From: a virus
Virus genome (UHGV): UHGV-0212524
DNA length: 64,000 nt
Direction: 5' to 3' (one strand)
Part shown: positions 26,185 to 58,420 of the stretch, piece after piece
How positions within the stretch are numbered: the stretch's first letter is position 1
Layout of the letters: every line of letters begins with the position of its first letter
Program-made: the position numbers and the translations under genes
The notes under the pieces: generated by a model
Told to the model about the DNA's origin: nothing
Database searches by the model: none
The model's input: only the letters and a program-made list of their open reading frames with translations

Positions 26185-26209
26185 TCAGATAGATATTACC
26201 TTAGTGAGA
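26185..26209 (+). promoter_or_regulatory. conserved promoter-like motif TCAGATAGATATTACCTTAGTGAGA
   Basis: near-identical to copies at 46575 and 50194; follows a terminator and precedes gene 26260; followed by an inverted repeat. Confidence 0.45.
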
Positions 26210-39747: not shown

Positions 39748-39780
39748 TGGGGGAGGTGCTTTACCTCCCCCAGATCTTTT
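39748..39780 (+). terminator. rho-independent terminator
   Basis: GGGGGAGGT-GCTTT-ACCTCCCCC hairpin plus T-tract. Confidence 0.75.
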
Positions 39781-39805
39781 AGCTCCCGATAGAGAATTAA
39801 ATATC

Positions 39806-42800
39806 ATGGCTAAAGCGGTAAAGAAAATTCGTTTACACGATTTACGTCCATACACCGGGGATATAGGTGAAGGTGTTTTACTTTTTTCCAAGGATGAGAA
39901 AGATTATAAGTTACCTGTCCGTGAGATCGTTGCAGATATTGACACCGTACGTAATGCGGTGTCTGATGCACAAACAGCAGCAACACAATCACAAGAAGCT
40001 GCAACTCAGGCTACACAAGCAAAGAATTTAGCAGAAACAGCAAAACAACAAACTGACACCGTTGCGGCTACAGTTGCTCAACAAGCGCAAACTGTAACCG
40101 AAAAAGCAACTGAAGTCGGTACAAAACACACTGAAGTGTTAGCCGCGAAAACGGCGGTAGATACCCAGGTTGTGTCCGTTAATGAGAAAGCGCAAGCGGT
40201 AGCGGCAAGCGAGGCCAACGTCACACAAGCGGTGACTACCGTTACGAAGAAAGCAGAAACTGTTGCCACACAAGCCGGTCAAGTCGAACAGTCGCTTACG
40301 GCAGTTAACGAAGCTGTCGCGTCGGTAGAGTCGTCAAAAGCCGCTGTAGAAGCTACAGCAACGCAAGTTACCACAGACAAAGAAACCGCAGAGAATGCGG
40401 CAACGCGTTCTGAGGCAGCGGCTAAGCGTGCAGAAGAAATCGCTGCAAAAGGTAACGTTGATGCAACAACGACCAGTAAAGGTATCGTTAGACTTAATAA
40501 TACCTTAAGCAGTGACTCTGTTACTGAAGCGGCTACGCCGTCAACGGTTAAGCAGTTAAATGAAGATTTGCAGTTAAAAGCAAACCGTCACAACCCAACT
40601 TTTACCGGTGTGGTAAAAGCACCAACACCTGCTTCGGATTCTAACGACACGAGCGTCTCAACGACCGCATGGGTACGGCAAGCGATTGCTGAATTAGTGG
40701 ACTCTTCACCCGAGACGTTAGATACGTTATCAGAAATTGCAGCTGCGTTAGGAAACGATCCTAACTTTGCGACAACGATGACGAACCAACTCGCGGGTAA
40801 ACAGCCGTTAAGTCCGTTACTGACAGCGATTGCCGCAGTCACCACCGCTGCAAACAAACTCCCTTACTTTACCGGTAGTAATCAGGTAGGGTTAGCGGAT
40901 TTCACCTCGACTGCGCGTGATTTGTTAGCGAAAGGGTCGACGGCAGATATCATTAACTTCCTGGGTTTGAAAACCACTGTTGATAAAGCTGCGGGTGCTA
41001 TGCAACGCAGTTCTAACGGTGCCGATATTCCAGATAAAGTCACCTTCGCGAAGAACATCGGGTTGTCAGCAGAGACGTATTTGAAGTTTAATGGGGAAAT
41101 GGCAGTAGATGCGGATATCAACACCTTCGGCCCAGTCGAAGCGTTTATGGGTGTCTGGTCTAAAGCCACGTCTACGAATGCAACAATTGCAAAGAACTTC
41201 CCGGAAGACGATGCAGTTGGTTACTTAGAGGTATTCAAAGCAGGTAACTACAGCGGAAGCCAACGTTTTACCATACGTAACGGTAACGTCTATACTCGTC
41301 GTTTAACAGGAACCTGGAACGGTACTAACGGCCCTTGGTCGCCCTGGAGAATGACAACTACCGCGAACCGTCCGCTCTCCACCACTATTGACCTTAACAC
41401 TTTAGGTGGTGTTGAACACATGGGTCAGTGGCGTAACTCCAGTTCTTCTCTTGCGACGTTCGATCGTCATTATCCCGAAGAAGGTGGTAATGCTCAAGGT
41501 GTATTAGAAGTAATGGAAGGTGGTCTCTACGGACGTATGCAACGTTACACCACTCGTCGTGGTACGATGTATGTCCGTGGGTTGACTGCGACTTGGGATG
41601 CGTCTAATCCACAGTGGGAAGATTGGATTCAAGTTGGGTATCAGGTAGACGGTGCCTACTATAAGGGTAGCTTTAATGACTTAACTAAACCTGGTCGTTT
41701 TAGTGTTACCGGTGAGGCTACTGACGGTCCGTTAACAGACTCTGCTGGCGCAACCTTGTTAGGTGTTTGCGAAGTTACCTTACGCTTAGACGGTTCAGGC
41801 GTTGAACAAAATTATACCACATACGGTACAGGCGCAACTACGAAAGGTCGCAAGTTCCAACGAATTCGTACAGGAAACGCCTGGAGCGAATGGCGAGAGA
41901 TTTTCACATCCTATTCACTCCCGTTGGCTTTAGGGATCGGTGGGGTTGCTGCCAAGGTCGATCCGTTAGACTGGCAAACCTTCGATTTCGTTCCTGGCCA
42001 GATGATAAGTACACCGTTGAATACCATGAAAAACATTCCTGCGGGAATGGATTGGGGTGTTATTGACGGTAACTTGGTCAGTATTCTCGTAGGGGCGTCA
42101 GAGGACACCGGTACTGGTCGGAGTATGTTGGTCTGGCGCGGTACAGTGTCTACTGCTAACTATCGCTTCTTTGCAGTACGTATCGCTGGCGAGAAGGGTA
42201 GCCGTACGATTACGCCACGACAGATGCCTGTGTTGAACGCAGCCCACACTTGGGCAGAGAAACAGACCTTTGCAAAAGGGTTAGCAGGTGAGTTAACCGG
42301 CAATGCTTCAACCGCCACTAAGCTCCAGACTGCGCGTAGAATTGGCGGGGTCGCTTTCGACGGCAGCGGCGACGTTAACCTCCCAGGTGTTAACCAACAA
42401 GGTAATCAAAACACCACAGGTAACGCCGCGACAGCCACTAAACTTCAAACCGCCAGAAATATTAACGGTGTGAAATTCGATGGCTCTGGAGACATCAATA
42501 TCAACACCTTGGTAGGTCGTGGACGGGTTACCGCTCTGACCGGGTCGAACAAGGGTACACCTGGTATCCAGATGTACGAAGTTTACAATAACGGTTATCC
42601 AACCGCCTATGGTAACTTGCTGCACTTAGGTGGTGCTAATGCGCTAGGCGAAGGTGAGTTGTTAATTGGTTGGTCGGGCACGAGTGGTGCACACGCACCC
42701 GTTTATATTCGTAGTCGACGCGATACGGCTGATGCGCCGTGGTCAGATTGGGCACAAGTTTATACTGCCCGTGACAGTATTCCTGGTGTAAATACCACCG

Positions 42801-44272
42801 GTAATCAGGATACTACTGGCAATGCCGCTACCGCGACGAAACTGAAAACCGCTCGCAGAATCGGCGGCGTTACCTTTGACGGTACTGGGGATATCAATTT
42901 ACCGGGGGTTAACCAGCAAGGCAACCAGAATACGACAGGTAATGCAGCGACCGCTACTAAGTTACAAACAGCACGTAAGATCGGCGGTGTTAACTTTGAC
43001 GGTTCGCAAGACATTAGTCTGCCCGGTGTAAACCAGACGGGTAATCAGTCGACTACCGGAAACGCAGCCACGGCAACAAAGTTGCAGACAGCGCGTACCA
43101 TTAACGGTATCGCATTTGACGGTACTAGAAATATATCGTTAGGGCCTGCCGATATAGGTTGTCCGGCTTCGCCCACTGGTTGGTTGGAGACTGGTAAAGA
43201 CGGCGGCGCAATAACTACAGCACAGCTAGTGACGTTATTGCAAAATAACGGCGCGTTTACCACAAAATCATGGGTTGCTCGCTGTGCATGGGCTTATGCT
43301 GCTAGTGCGTCCATACCGAACAGCGAGACGGGTTGTGGTGTTATTCCGTTAGCTGGGGCTGTTATAGAAGTGATTAGTAACAGCGCAAACAACTACACGA
43401 TCCGTATAACGACCCCCACAACGACGAGCGTCGGCGGCGCACTCACTAATGCGGAGTTTATCTACGTAAATAACGGTGATGCTTACTCACCAGGTTGGCG
43501 TCGCGCTTACAATACGAAAAACAAGCCAACTGCTGCGGATGTTGGGGCGTTGCCATTATCTGGCGGTCAATTGAATGGTGTGCTGACGCTGCAAAATGTG
43601 AGTCAGCCTCTCAAGACGCCGGGTGGCGGCATTCTGGCAAATGATGGAAATTTATACATCAATAAGTCAGGATTTGCAGGCTGGATTGATGCGCTGTTTT
43701 TGAAGAACAGCGGCGGTACTGTCACTGGCGATTTAACGGTTAACGGTAAACTGGTTACGAAGTATGCTGATTTCCGAATCGCTTACGGTAGCTGCGGTTT
43801 CATTTTACGTAATGATGGTGCCAATACCTATTTCTTAGTAACCGACTCCGGACAAGCCGCAACGGGTTCCTGGAACGGACTACGTCCGTTGTATTTTAAT
43901 AACTCTAACGGTCAAGTAACCTTTGGTCATAACATTTCTAGCAACGGTAACGGTTCGTTTAACGACGTACAGATTCGTTCTGACCGTCGCAACAAACGTA
44001 ATCTGGTGAAGCTGGATAAGGCTTTGGATCGGTTAGAAGCGCTTACCGGCTATCTGTACGAGGTTCAACATCCAGACGACGGTTGGAACACTTCGGTAGG
44101 TCTAATTGCTCAAGACGCATTAGAAGCGTTACCTGAACTTGTGTCTGAGGATGATGATGCCATTTCAGGCGAAAAACGTTTACGTCTAAACTACAATGGC
44201 GTTATTGCGCTGTTAGTAGAGGGTATGAAAGCGTTGCGTCAAGAGGTTAACGAAATTAAAGGAAGATCCTAA
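39806..44272 (+). CDS. long tail fibre protein (1488 aa) with phage tail-fibre repeats and C-terminal S74-type intramolecular chaperone domain
   Basis: Ala/Thr/Gln-rich N-terminal shaft; five or six copies of GNAATATKLQTARxIGGVxFDGSGDINL; C-terminal SDRRNKRNLVKLDKALDRLEALTGYLYE...NYNGVIALLVEGMKALRQEV typical of auto-cleaving chaperone domains (T5 pb1 / K1F endosialidase type). Confidence 0.85.
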   Translation: MAKAVKKIRLHDLRPYTGDIGEGVLLFSKDEKDYKLPVREIVADIDTVRNAVSDAQTAATQSQEAATQATQAKNLAETAKQQTDTVAATVAQQAQTVTEKATEVGTKHTEVLAAKTAVDTQVVSVNEKAQAVAASEANVTQAVTTVTKKAETVATQAGQVEQSLTAVNEAVASVESSKAAVEATATQVTTDKETAENAATRSEAAAKRAEEIAAKGNVDATTTSKGIVRLNNTLSSDSVTEAATPSTVKQLNEDLQLKANRHNPTFTGVVKAPTPASDSNDTSVSTTAWVRQAIAELVDSSPETLDTLSEIAAALGNDPNFATTMTNQLAGKQPLSPLLTAIAAVTTAANKLPYFTGSNQVGLADFTSTARDLLAKGSTADIINFLGLKTTVDKAAGAMQRSSNGADIPDKVTFAKNIGLSAETYLKFNGEMAVDADINTFGPVEAFMGVWSKATSTNATIAKNFPEDDAVGYLEVFKAGNYSGSQRFTIRNGNVYTRRLTGTWNGTNGPWSPWRMTTTANRPLSTTIDLNTLGGVEHMGQWRNSSSSLATFDRHYPEEGGNAQGVLEVMEGGLYGRMQRYTTRRGTMYVRGLTATWDASNPQWEDWIQVGYQVDGAYYKGSFNDLTKPGRFSVTGEATDGPLTDSAGATLLGVCEVTLRLDGSGVEQNYTTYGTGATTKGRKFQRIRTGNAWSEWREIFTSYSLPLALGIGGVAAKVDPLDWQTFDFVPGQMISTPLNTMKNIPAGMDWGVIDGNLVSILVGASEDTGTGRSMLVWRGTVSTANYRFFAVRIAGEKGSRTITPRQMPVLNAAHTWAEKQTFAKGLAGELTGNASTATKLQTARRIGGVAFDGSGDVNLPGVNQQGNQNTTGNAATATKLQTARNINGVKFDGSGDININTLVGRGRVTALTGSNKGTPGIQMYEVYNNGYPTAYGNLLHLGGANALGEGELLIGWSGTSGAHAPVYIRSRRDTADAPWSDWAQVYTARDSIPGVNTTGNQDTTGNAATATKLKTARRIGGVTFDGTGDINLPGVNQQGNQNTTGNAATATKLQTARKIGGVNFDGSQDISLPGVNQTGNQSTTGNAATATKLQTARTINGIAFDGTRNISLGPADIGCPASPTGWLETGKDGGAITTAQLVTLLQNNGAFTTKSWVARCAWAYAASASIPNSETGCGVIPLAGAVIEVISNSANNYTIRITTPTTTSVGGALTNAEFIYVNNGDAYSPGWRRAYNTKNKPTAADVGALPLSGGQLNGVLTLQNVSQPLKTPGGGILANDGNLYINKSGFAGWIDALFLKNSGGTVTGDLTVNGKLVTKYADFRIAYGSCGFILRNDGANTYFLVTDSGQAATGSWNGLRPLYFNNSNGQVTFGHNISSNGNGSFNDVQIRSDRRNKRNLVKLDKALDRLEALTGYLYEVQHPDDGWNTSVGLIAQDALEALPELVSEDDDAISGEKRLRLNYNGVIALLVEGMKALRQEVNEIKGRS
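42298..43140 (+). repeat. in-frame ~120-nt tandem repeats encoding the tail-fibre repeat units (two clusters)
   Basis: repeated DNA and peptide units inside the fibre gene; they also generate antisense ORFs on the minus strand. Confidence 0.8.
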
Positions 44273-45054
44273 TGGCAGTTGTCGGCGTAGGTGGTTGGAT
44301 TGGTTCTTCAGCAAAAGCTGAAACTGGTAACGATTGGATGTCTGGCGCGATGCGCACACTTGGTGTGCCGGTTCCAGGCTGGATGTCGCAATTGGCGGGA
44401 AAATCAAAAGAGGTTCAGTATTCGATCGGGGCTAATCACAATTACAATAAAGATACGCTTATTAACTATTTACGTTCTATAGGCTCTAATGCTGTCGTTG
44501 TGACCATTACAGGGGATTTAGTGTCTTATAGTAGCGGGGTTCCTTGTTTAGAATTCCCTAGCAATCTTCCAAATTCGTATATTACACTCATCATCAATCC
44601 TGGGGTTACAGTATACGGCAGAGGAGGCAACGGCGGTTCTAACTCACCAGGCGGTGCAGGTGGAACCGCAATACAGAACGGAATAGGAAACAGACTGCGT
44701 ATAACCAACCGTGGCGCTATTGCCGGAGGCGGTGGCGGCGGTGGCGGCGGTAACAGGGGTAGACTAATATTTGGTGGTGGCGGTGGTCGCCCATTCGGTG
44801 CTGGTGGGTCTTCCTCACATATGAGTTCCGGTGCAGCTGCTGGTACTATTTCCGCTCCTGGTAGAGGATCTGTTGGTGAGGGGTCTCTTAGTGCATATAC
44901 AGGCGGTTCGGGTGGTAATGTCGGTGCTGCTGGAGGAAGATGTAATACTCATGGTAACGGTACAGAATATAACGGCGGAGCCGCTGGTGCAGCCGTTAGA
45001 GGTAATGCGCCAAGATGGGACGCAGTAGGTGCAATATATGGTTCACGTGTTTAA
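44272..45054 (+). CDS. glycine-rich protein (260 aa), adhesin/fibre-tip candidate
   Basis: ATGA-type overlap with the fibre gene; poly-Gly runs (GGGGGGGGGN, FGGGGGRPFGAGG); N-terminus shared with 45115..45618. Confidence 0.5.
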   Translation: MAVVGVGGWIGSSAKAETGNDWMSGAMRTLGVPVPGWMSQLAGKSKEVQYSIGANHNYNKDTLINYLRSIGSNAVVVTITGDLVSYSSGVPCLEFPSNLPNSYITLIINPGVTVYGRGGNGGSNSPGGAGGTAIQNGIGNRLRITNRGAIAGGGGGGGGGNRGRLIFGGGGGRPFGAGGSSSHMSSGAAAGTISAPGRGSVGEGSLSAYTGGSGGNVGAAGGRCNTHGNGTEYNGGAAGAAVRGNAPRWDAVGAIYGSRV

Positions 45055-45114
45055 TTTGAAAAAGTATGGGGATACTCACTCCCCTCCTCACACCTTTCAA
45101 AAGGATAGGGTATA

Positions 45115-45618
45115 ATGGGGGTAGCATCTGGATGGGTCGGTTCTTCGGCCAAGAACGAAACGGGCGAACAATGGATGAGTGCTGCTGGTAGTAAATTAGG
45201 ATTGGGTAGACCTTTTATGATGAGTCAAATGGTGGGCCGATCTCTTGGCTGTAAAATCGCAACTGCTGCATATAGCGATTCAATGGCTAAATTTTGGGGT
45301 GCGGTGGGACCAAACTGGCCGTTAGCGCAGAAAAATAAAGGGACTATTCAGAATCCTGGTAGCTGCGGCGTAGGCACACTTATTGGTATCCAACTACTAT
45401 TGATCACATTGGCTGCTGATGCAAAACCAAGTTTAGCGGTCTATTTACAAGGTGGGAGAGCTTCTAACATCACCGTAAATCTAGGCGGCAACACTTGTAC
45501 GGTAGCCTATCAGCAGGTTATTAATGGTCAACATTATTACTGGACCTCTAACATTAGCACTGCTTTCCAAAACGTGATGAAATCAACCGGCACATTAAGA
45601 GATTTGAAGATTAGTTAA
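45115..45618 (+). CDS. hypothetical protein sharing an N-terminal domain with the Gly-rich protein
   Basis: MGVASGWVGSSAKNETGEQWMS versus MAVVGVGGWIGSSAKAETGNDWMS. Confidence 0.5.
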   Translation: MGVASGWVGSSAKNETGEQWMSAAGSKLGLGRPFMMSQMVGRSLGCKIATAAYSDSMAKFWGAVGPNWPLAQKNKGTIQNPGSCGVGTLIGIQLLLITLAADAKPSLAVYLQGGRASNITVNLGGNTCTVAYQQVINGQHYYWTSNISTAFQNVMKSTGTLRDLKIS

Positions 45619-45648
45619 TAATTTTCAAGCGAATGTGCTTGAAAACGT

Positions 45649-45895
45649 AATCGGGGGGGGGGGTGAAATGTTTTTAGCCACCATTTTATGTCTCCCCAAG
45701 CATAGGAGGTAACCATACGTGGAACATTTCACGCCTGTTTGGGCGTTAACTTAAGTAAAAAACGATCACTCGAATCTGCTATAAAAAGCAATCGGGGGGT
45801 GGTGAAATGTTTATAGACAACTTTTTATGTCTCTCCAATCATAGGAGGTAACCATACGTGGAACAATTCACGCCTGATTTGTCGTTAACTTCACT
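45649..45895 (+). repeat. tandem duplication (~105 bp units, ~139 bp period) of the promoter/RBS/first codons of gene 45858
   Basis: copy 1 at ~45649-45752 and copy 2 at ~45789-45895 share AATCGGGGGG..GTGAAATGTTT..TTTTATGTCTC..CATAGGAGGTAACCATACGTGGAACA.TTCACGCCTG; copy 1 retains a GTG-initiated 11-codon remnant ORF (45719..45754). Confidence 0.7.
45653..45663 (+). repeat. G11 homopolymeric tract
   Basis: eleven consecutive G in copy 1 of the duplicated upstream region; copy 2 has GGGGGGTGG. Confidence 0.8.
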
Positions 45896-46370
45896 TAACA
45901 TGGTTATTTCACTGGTTAACCATGACCTCCAGCTCGACCTGCAAGAGAACGAGGTTGAAGTCAGCGACGTAAAGACCAGTAACGAAATGGATCGTGACAC
46001 CACTGCTGTTGTAAAGATAAAACGTCCTGGTAACAGAACGTTACAAATCTATTACAACCGTTTAACCGCAGAGCGGTGGTTAAACCAGCAACCTATTCTG
46101 GTAAAGGTTTCCGGTAATGGTTTTACCGCACACGATCTAATCGACGGAATTAACGCGGCTTGCGGTTGTAATTTACAACCCGACGATCTTACCGACGAAT
46201 CATTTACCGTAGGGAAAGACGCTGTAACGTTACAGGTTTCACCCAACTCGTTAGGTTATAAAGGCCAATTCTCCGTTCTGGTTTTCGGTAACGACGAAGA
46301 AGCCGCTGTAGTAAAAGACAACGATTTAATCGTTACCGCAGATAATCGCGTCTTAACCTTTGGTGGTTAA
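45858..46370 (+). CDS. paralog-family protein (170 aa), paralog of 35731..36294
   Basis: GTG start with TAGGAGGT RBS; conserved PDLSLTS, YYNRL and CGCNLQPDDL motifs. Confidence 0.55.
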   Translation: MEQFTPDLSLTSLNMVISLVNHDLQLDLQENEVEVSDVKTSNEMDRDTTAVVKIKRPGNRTLQIYYNRLTAERWLNQQPILVKVSGNGFTAHDLIDGINAACGCNLQPDDLTDESFTVGKDAVTLQVSPNSLGYKGQFSVLVFGNDEEAAVVKDNDLIVTADNRVLTFGG

Positions 46371-46528: not shown

Positions 46529-46576
46529 AGGTAGTAGGGGCTAAGCCCCTACTACCTTTCTTTTTTATTTTTTCTC
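46529..46576 (+). terminator. rho-independent terminator
   Basis: AGGTAGTAGGGG-CTAA-GCCCCTACTACCT hairpin plus T-tract. Confidence 0.8.
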
Positions 46577-46599
46577 AGATATATATTACCTAGGGGAGA
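46575..46599 (+). promoter_or_regulatory. conserved promoter-like motif TCAGATATATATTACCTAGGGGAGA
   Basis: contains TATATTAC; directly after a terminator T-tract; followed by an inverted repeat (GAGAGCGAA..TTCGCTCT). Confidence 0.45.
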
Positions 46600-46744
46600 G
46601 CGAAATTTACATTCGCTCTATTAGTTATAGCCGAAAGGAGGATTAGTTCTATCACCCGTATTATCTGTTCTGGTGAATTGGGTGAAGATAAAAAATCGTG
46701 TTTGATAAATTAGTTGAAGACTACGTTAAGAAAGAGGGACAATT

Positions 46745-48884: not shown

Positions 48885-48926
48885 TATAACCCCTCTCAGG
48901 AATTCCTGAGAGGGTGGAGTAACAAT

Positions 48927-50193: not shown

Positions 50194-50218
50194 TCAGATA
50201 TATATTACCTAGGTGAGA
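50194..50218 (+). promoter_or_regulatory. conserved promoter-like motif TCAGATATATATTACCTAGGTGAGA
   Basis: contains TATATTAC; followed by inverted repeat GTGAGAG..CTCTCAC and CTTAACTAAA; upstream of gene 50265. Confidence 0.45.
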
Positions 50219-50264
50219 GTTCAGCTACTCTCACTTAACTAAAACCATTTTAGGAGCATATACC

Positions 50265-58388: not shown

Positions 58389-58420
58389 AATCGGGGGGGG
58401 TGACCTCCCCCGATATTTCT
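58389..58420 (+). terminator. terminator hairpin containing a G8 run
   Basis: ATCGGGGGGGG-TGACC-TCCCCCGAT hairpin. Confidence 0.6.

Follow-up and report, generated by a model that had tools for sequence, protein, structure and literature searches.

A diverged tandem repeat with a G-tract hairpin at the gp38-type adhesin cassette border of an SPN3US-like jumbo phage

Intercistronic mRNA stem-loops, such as the REP hairpins of malEFG and the RNase III sites of T7, stabilise the cistron before them or reduce read-through into the next. The host range of a phage is set by its tail-fibre adhesin cassettes, and their exchange matters for phage evolution as well as for phage engineering. At the distal tail-fibre locus of T-even phages, adhesins are swapped when conserved motifs recombine (Tetart 1998; Trojet et al. 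2011, PMC3157838). We found a similar arrangement in an SPN3US-like jumbo phage, where gp38-type adhesin genes are hypervariable and flanked by conserved sequence and where relatives are mosaic, with breakpoints at the border between conserved and variable DNA. Unlike in the T-even locus, the border here is an intergenic hairpin, not a motif inside a protein, and a single unequal exchange appears to have left a 140-bp tandem duplication. The locus offers a concrete exchange boundary in an SPN3US-like jumbo phage with T-even-type gp38 adhesins, at which an unequal event seems to be preserved as a decaying tandem duplicate.

In Campylobacter phages, polyG tracts reportedly lie inside reading frames, where frameshifts turn receptor-binding proteins on and off. 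Hypermutable polyG tracts of these phages are the subject of Sorensen et al. 2021 (Cell Rep 35:109214), a paper in the reference list of PMC10877375. Like them, the locus described here has a long G homopolymer in a host-recognition module, with a length that differs between otherwise identical genomes; unlike them, its tract is intergenic and is a predicted hairpin arm, its natural lengths all fall on a predicted plateau, and no switch is evident. Caution is needed, as a polymorphic long homopolymer in a receptor-binding module resembles a contingency locus. Overall, we consider it likely that recombination made the duplication, that its two units then decayed in complementary ways, and that the G tract is a drifting hairpin arm and not a switch. 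The event is of an ordinary kind, a tandem-duplication scar plus homopolymer drift, in an informative place.

Genomic setting and layout of the repeat

The window, meaning the whole 64,000-nt stretch of virus genome UHGV-0212524 that was analysed, belongs to an SPN3US-like jumbo phage genome of ~222 kb, whose major capsid protein (761 aa) shares 78-80% identity with its counterparts in SPN3US, phiEaH2 and Proteus phage 7. Positions 22000-46000 (24 kb) matched an Enterobacter ludwigii "plasmid" record at 94.7% identity over 89%. This closest public relative (L001, NZ_CP134650.1) is described as a 222-kb circular, non-mobilizable E. ludwigii plasmid, yet it is a jumbo-phage genome, and its deposit as a plasmid may reflect a carrier state or a co-assembled phage.

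A tail fibre gene (1488 aa) and then two gp38-type adhesin genes precede the repeat (Table 1). The interval 39806-45618 thereby presents an SPN3US/phiEaH2-like jumbo phage with a T-even-style fibre tip and two tandem gp38-type adhesins, both with the Gp38_N attachment domain. DNA identity to Straboviridae phages (RB49, JSE and others) is ~77-92% for adhesin 1 and the fibre tip, and falls in the same range for E. coli and Citrobacter plasmid records of ~106-122 kb, while the 5' end of adhesin 2 is 91.5% identical to phage CMS-2020a. These identities across phages imply cassette exchange between phage families.

On the 3' side, gene X opens with a GTG at the position of the PGAP start in the closest relative, which there is ATG, and its N-terminus is conserved among relatives, with synonymous changes. 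A sequence comparison of gene X with the PDB was uninformative. The preliminary description had called it a receptor-binding-module gene, a label that goes too far for a DUF7941 virion protein that is not a demonstrated receptor-binding protein. The terminator downstream of gene X probably ends a transcription unit running from the fibre gene through the adhesins to gene X. Two relatives differ in this part of the module. In L005 (1576-3510), the DUF7941 domain forms the C-terminus of a 644-aa ORF and not a free-standing 170-aa protein. In L012 (2700-3000), gp38 adhesins are replaced by a gene for a Tfa-like tail-fibre chaperone (ending ..WEGYTVMISRVDTNNPVWPEKPLI and a stop), which gene X follows, so that a different receptor-binding module sits on the same backbone, without the G-tract hairpin.

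Table 1. Positions in the window of the genes, repeat parts and terminators discussed in the text (HP1 and HP2, first and second hairpin of a unit; dG, predicted folding energy)
Feature	Start	End	Strand	Evidence or remarks
Adhesin 1	44272	45054		GP38 plus Gp38_N
Adhesin 2, 167 aa, Gp38_N; hypervariable cassette ending just before the repeat	45115	45618	+	PF21721, phrog_1121
HP1, unit 1, directly 3' of the adhesin stop: TTTTCAAGC-gaatgt-GCTTGAAAA	45622	45645	+	MFE fold in window, L002, L010 and L014
G11 tract, predicted 5' arm of HP2, unit 1	45653	45663	+	G9 to G13 or interrupted in relatives
HP2 copy 1, predicted conserved RNA hairpin	45653	45697	+	dG -20.2 kcal/mol, against -10.2 on the minus strand
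AGGAGG Shine-Dalgarno, unit 1	45704	45709	+	Identical to the unit 2 copy
11-codon stub VEHFTPVWALT and a stop, apparent duplicated 5' end of gene X	45719	45754	+	4 private substitutions in 34 nt
Duplication junction	45752	45753	.	Breaks in relatives' alignments and in-register comparison
Degenerate stop/HP1 copy, unit 2	45754	45789	+	12 mismatches in 36 nt against unit 1; HP1 fold gone
HP2 copy 2, interrupted tract GGGGGGTGG at 45794-45802	45794	45836	+	dG -12.8 kcal/mol; 5 changes without match in any canonical relative
AGGAGG Shine-Dalgarno of live gene X	45843	45848	+	No private changes in SD/spacer or in first 34 nt of ORF
Gene X, 170-aa DUF7941, annotated virion structural protein; conserved backbone	45858	46370	+	PF25613, phrog_2935
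Canonical intrinsic terminator, 13-bp stem then T run	46529	46557	+	Terminator scan
Comparator terminator ATCGGGGGGGG-tgac-CTCCCCCGAT then T run	58390	58414	+	Terminator scan

Where adhesin 2 meets gene X we detected two head-to-tail units of 139-141 bp, at ~45613-45752 (unit 1) and ~45753-45891 (unit 2), both of which contain AATC, a G tract, a hairpin, AGGAGG and GTG. The repeat search returned two direct repeats: one of 105 nt at 87% identity with a spacing of 139 (45655-45759 and 45794-45898), and one of 49 nt at 73% identity with a spacing of 141 (45613-45661 and 45754-45802). Their spacings are offset by 2 nt because the G tracts of the two copies differ in length. The 25-mer ATAGGAGGTAACCATACGTGGAACA, which spans the Shine-Dalgarno, the GTG and five bases beyond it, has exactly two occurrences (45702 and 45841), where shuffles expect 0. 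The units diverge by 13% in the HP2 core and by 33% in the spacer, and Tandem Repeats Finder did not call the array because units and spacer are too diverged. Runs of G8 or longer gave 5 overlapping matches at 2 sites against 0.44 expected, and the 64 kb holds only three runs of G6 or longer on both strands (the tract at 45653, the copy 2 tract and 58393). The layout proposed in the preliminary description is borne out by these results: two ~105-bp copies lie ~139 bp apart, each with a ribosome-binding site and a GTG; copy 1, with an uninterrupted G11, ends in an 11-codon remnant opened by its GTG, and copy 2, with an interrupted tract, starts the real gene.

Origin of the duplication and decay of its units

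Related loci were recovered by protein-guided and exact-protein look-ups, and 17 of them carry the element (L001-L011, L013, L014 and L033-L036). All 17 have it once, and the duplication was seen only in the window genome (1/18). Each of the 13 loci compared by blastn (L001-L011, L013 and L014) matches both window units, with alignments that break at 45750-45752 and resume at 45771-45794, and these breaks place the junction at 45752|45753. To its left, homology to gene X runs through codon 11 (..GTTAACTT); to its right, homology to the adhesin stop region begins (AGT..). Adhesins in this group are of two types, type A being followed by HP1 and type B by an AT-rich spacer. The 36 nt before copy 2 align without gaps and in register to the type-A stop/HP1 region, with a score that 1 of 2000 shuffles matched. 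A cassette swap from a type-B genome at a GTTAACT microhomology was also considered; the spacer resembles type-B intergenic DNA weakly (41-388 of 2000 shuffles equal). Duplication of a whole type-A unit of 139-141 bp is therefore preferred.

From the sequence comparison, the repeat appears to be a tandem segmental duplication, a derived state in the window genome. The preliminary description had offered a footprint of recent recombination as one reading. Recombination holds up well, given a duplicate missing from all 17 element-bearing loci, a mosaic breakpoint and decaying redundant parts; "recent" is doubtful for units with 13% divergence in the core and 33% in the spacer. Either the duplication is not very recent or the units derive from genomes that had already diverged. 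The excess of spacer divergence over that of the HP2 core means that the units may stem from two diverged genomes and not from duplication in situ.

Other routes to a repeat were examined and set aside. A diversity-generating retroelement (TR/VR) would confine mismatches to the adenines of one copy and set its variable repeat at the 3' end of a target ORF, and the mismatches observed are mixed (T/A, C/A, C/T and G/T), in copies that are both mostly non-coding. Target-site duplication by a mobile element is rejected, with nothing between the units and no ORF there on either strand, and the same empty interval speaks against an intron or homing-endonuclease insertion. Searches for the repeat elsewhere returned little: among phages, megablast and blastn turned up nothing homologous to the repeat, the sole match there being 153 bp in adhesin 2 (phage CMS-2020a), and against plasmids only the Enterobacter ludwigii record matched. 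A scan of genome contigs gave only an unrelated Ruminococcaceae match. The degenerate pattern AATCGGRGGGGGTRARATG hit 10 further loci in viral contigs (L020-L029), which on inspection were unrelated G-rich SD/start regions.

The duplication lies where the ancestry of the region changes. Over its 3' half, adhesin 2 matches L007 at 98% identity and other relatives at 79-84%; gene X is 97% identical at the nucleotide level to L001, L002 and L003 and 92% to L007. Both adhesin types are found with both HP2/SD types, a type-B tract is joined to the canonical inner stem in L034, and the homology of L005 to the window stops at 45658, within the G tract. The duplication is best read as one unequal exchange at the border of the gp38 cassette. 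In the mechanism that we propose, unequal or illegitimate recombination would have duplicated one 139-141-bp unit where the gp38-type adhesin cassette meets the conserved backbone, comprising the adhesin-2 stop region, HP1, HP2, the SD and codons 1-11 of gene X. One copy of each part would suffice, and the extras would then decay in complementary fashion, with the upstream unit keeping its hairpins and losing its ORF and the downstream unit keeping its SD and ORF and losing its hairpins. The G-tract hairpin might itself be a recombinogenic, hypermutable cassette boundary that drives adhesin exchange, with tract length tuning the ratio of adhesin to gene X in the RNA. Here the G run would slip or stall replication and cause template switching at the edge of the adhesin cassette, with occasional unequal events. 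In three independent comparisons (type A against type B, L005 and L034), breakpoints coincide with the tract or hairpin or lie within it, which is compatible with such a role but is not proof of it, and we regard it as improbable.

Private changes, scored per copy against seven canonical relatives, suggest how the units have fared since. Copy 1 has 1 in the hairpin, 1 in the spacer and 4 in the 34-nt stub, and copy 2 has 4 in the hairpin plus a T in the tract and 0 in the SD, spacer or ORF. The contrast between hairpin and ORF across the copies gave a Fisher p of 0.048 from few substitutions. Within unit 2, 17 of 83 hairpin-region positions have changed, against 0 of 55 in the SD plus ORF (p = 1e-4); for unit 1 alone, the decay contrast was not significant (p = 0.18). 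Complementary degeneration of the units is thus suggestive. The pattern recalls duplication-degeneration-complementation, a model reportedly due to Force et al. 1999, in that each copy keeps a different sub-part (hairpins, or SD and ORF). Unlike in that model, the duplicated piece is 140 bp of regulatory and 5'-end sequence where the model deals with whole genes, and the statistics are weak (p about 0.05).

Two other accounts of the repeat deny either that it is real or that it is idle. Faulty assembly, or a chimera formed from two co-assembled strains, would fit the exact-protein look-up of adhesin 2, which found no match. It is very hard to square with units that differ at 13-33% of positions and with a unit 2 whose diverged HP1 region and private HP2 changes are absent from every relative; moreover, assemblers collapse repeats and do not create diverged tandem copies, and we think an artefact highly improbable. 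The duplication could instead be adaptive, with serial hairpins that strengthen attenuation or insulation between adhesin and gene X, or with the 11-codon ORF as a leader peptide for gene X. Unit 1 does retain a perfect SD and a GTG that opens an 11-codon frame, and folding is still possible in both HP2 copies. Adaptation seems quite unlikely all the same: the duplication occurs in one genome among 18, HP1 of unit 2 is destroyed and its HP2 is among the weakest seen, and the stub carries 4 private changes, some of them non-conservative (DLS to VWA), at sites nearly invariant in relatives. Additionally, the stop codon of the stub lies 105 nt from the gene X start, which makes translational coupling unlikely.

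The G-tract hairpin and its possible role

HP1, the first hairpin of unit 1, is also found after A-type adhesins in relatives. In HP2, the G tract pairs with (U/C)GUCUCCCC around an inner stem of UGAAAUG(UU):(AA)CAUUUUA, and all homologues show the same plan: a C/U-rich run, CGUCUCCCC or CCCCC, is the partner of the tract, an AU-rich stem lies inside, and the whole hairpin has 10-17 bp. Predicted energies were -17 to -24.6 kcal/mol in 13 relatives and -12.3 in L034, a range against which the two window copies can be set (Table 1). Five sequence-distinct types reached z-scores of -3.1 to -5.4, and none of 200 shuffles folded as well; for the two copies in the window the scores were -1.95 and -2.4, and both are weaker than most single copies. 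RNAalifold found compensatory double changes at 2 of 12 pairs, from few close sequences in a MAFFT alignment that is not structure-aware, and in L014 one G.U pair has become A-U. Folding of the canonical type favours the plus strand over the minus strand by 6-10 kcal/mol, an advantage owed to G.U pairs, and this asymmetry points to a sense-strand RNA structure. Judged by these predicted folds, the G tract is probably the 5' arm of a conserved sense-strand RNA stem-loop.

A search of Rfam with 45600-45900 returned no matching family (best E = 8.4). HP2 was considered as a canonical rho-independent terminator and rejected: its stem-loop is GC-rich, at -20 to -24.6 kcal/mol in copy 1 and most relatives, but a U-rich tail is absent after the stem, where the sequence reads AAGCAUAGGAGG or AAUCAUAGGAGG, and the terminator scan called 46529 and 58390 and not HP2. 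It does share features with the terminator at 58390, including an AATCG(n)TGA start, a CTCCCC 3' arm and a G tract that is length-variable and longer than its partner; unlike that terminator, HP2 has an extra AU-rich inner stem and lacks the T run.

We infer that HP2 works at the RNA level between cistrons, mainly on behalf of the fibre/adhesin transcript upstream, for example by protecting its 3' end or by attenuating read-through into gene X in part. As in known intercistronic stem-loops, HP2 is a stable sense-strand hairpin of 15-17 bp without a U tail between co-oriented genes of what is apparently one operon; unlike the REP and T7 RNase III hairpins, it is known here from sequence and predicted fold. 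Three observations favour this role: L005 keeps the hairpin after its adhesin although the 5' end of the next gene differs, L012 lacks it where gene X follows the Tfa-like gene, and in the window the unit adjoining the adhesin keeps the better hairpins. Taken with L005 and L012, the complementation pattern suggests that the hairpin travels with the adhesin cassette.

HP2 could alternatively act as an operator in the 5'-UTR of gene X that governs translation or stability, with the G tract keeping the C-rich arm (CUCC) off the GGAGG Shine-Dalgarno. The spacing agrees just as well with this, as the CGUCUCCCC run lies about 8-11 nt upstream of the SD of the next gene and the distance from HP2 to the SD stays roughly constant at ~8-11 nt across lineages, where that from HP2 to the adhesin stop ranges from ~31 to ~95 nt; the MFE structure of the weakened copy 2 also pairs CUCC with GGAG. 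Against it, gene X does without any such hairpin in L012, the hairpin of L005 precedes a different 5' gene end, and in the window the degraded copy is the one that adjoins the live gene. Predicted SD pairing, moreover, stays at 0.31-0.40 from G5 to G15 in the titration. An operator role for gene X is thus unlikely, and an intercistronic element of the fibre/adhesin transcript is favoured.

Tract length and the question of a switch

Uninterrupted tracts measured 9, 9, 10, 10, 10, 10, 11, 11, 11 and 13 (one G11 being that of the window), and several other lineages have interrupted tracts (GGAGGGGG, GAGGGGGGG and GGGGGAGGGG) with the hairpin kept. Over 780 nt, three loci whose runs have neighbouring SRA accession numbers (L033, L035 and L036) differ only in the tract, with G11, G10 and G11, so the tract either mutates at a high rate or is prone to sequencing error. 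The length differences probably arise by slipped-strand mispairing, though errors in sequencing or assembling homopolymers could account for part of those among metagenome assemblies. In silico titration of the tract left HP2 energy and SD accessibility flat from G9 to G15, both weakening below G9; nine G is both the length of the pairing partner and that of the shortest natural uninterrupted tract. As a control, the tract in the terminator at 58390 is G8 in the window, G9 in L030, G10 in L031 and A+G8 in L032, which shows that G-tract drift is general in this lineage. The tract would slip readily, nine G would saturate the pairing, extra G are predicted to be neutral, and length would drift.

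The preliminary description had proposed that slippage of the tract could make it a phase-variable switch, in which changes in promoter spacing or in the strength or register of an RNA structure alter expression of gene X or the adhesin and yield mixed virions. Its view of the tract as slippage-prone stands, with lengths of G9 to G13 among relatives, all above the ~8 nt at which slipping is expected, and with G10 and G11 in otherwise identical genomes; an invariant tract, which it had named as the observation that would count against a switch, is not what the relatives have. The location in a host-recognition module, the precedent of the polyG tracts in receptor-binding genes of Campylobacter phages, and a TTGAAA hexamer that by eye precedes TGAAAT by 17-21 nt, according to the length of the tract, also favour a switch. 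The on/off part of the proposal, however, finds no support. The tract is intergenic, so no reading frame depends on it, and it lies outside a recognisable promoter spacer: TGAAAT lacks the key A at position 2, no sigma-70 promoter spans the tract, and the promoter claimed for each copy did not emerge, as the sigma-70 scan found no site common to both (TAGACA-17-AATCAT in copy 2 only; TTAAGA-16-AATAAT overlapping the adhesin stop). The phage is moreover SPN3US/phiKZ-like, and such phages transcribe with their own RNA polymerases. The phage-specific ATATATTAC motif was not enriched (15 matches against 16.5 expected), with none in the repeat. Every natural uninterrupted tract sits on the G9 to G15 plateau, the terminator tract drifts equally, and interruption, which would abolish switching, has occurred in several lineages that retain the hairpin. 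In the window, G11 precedes the dead stub and the tract of the live gene is interrupted. A phase-variable switch therefore has a low probability; the tract is not part of a promoter and does not switch a reading frame, and on the predicted folds it is better explained as a structurally buffered hairpin arm that drifts above a length threshold.

Other intergenic signals in the region were recorded in passing. GC-rich hairpins without a clear U tail occur within the fibre module and beyond it, at 45068-45084, 48885-48926 (intergenic) and 39760-39786, just upstream of the ribosome-binding site of the next gene, and may be of the same intercistronic class as HP2; most other units in the region close with canonical terminators. 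Additionally, a 26-nt motif, TCAGATATATATTACCTAGG(T/G)GAGAG, lies just after terminators at 46575-46600 and 50194-50219, with a similar copy near 26185, where 0 are expected by chance. To judge from its sequence, it looks like a phage-specific promoter, and the TATATTAC core within it is presumably the core of phiKZ early promoters.
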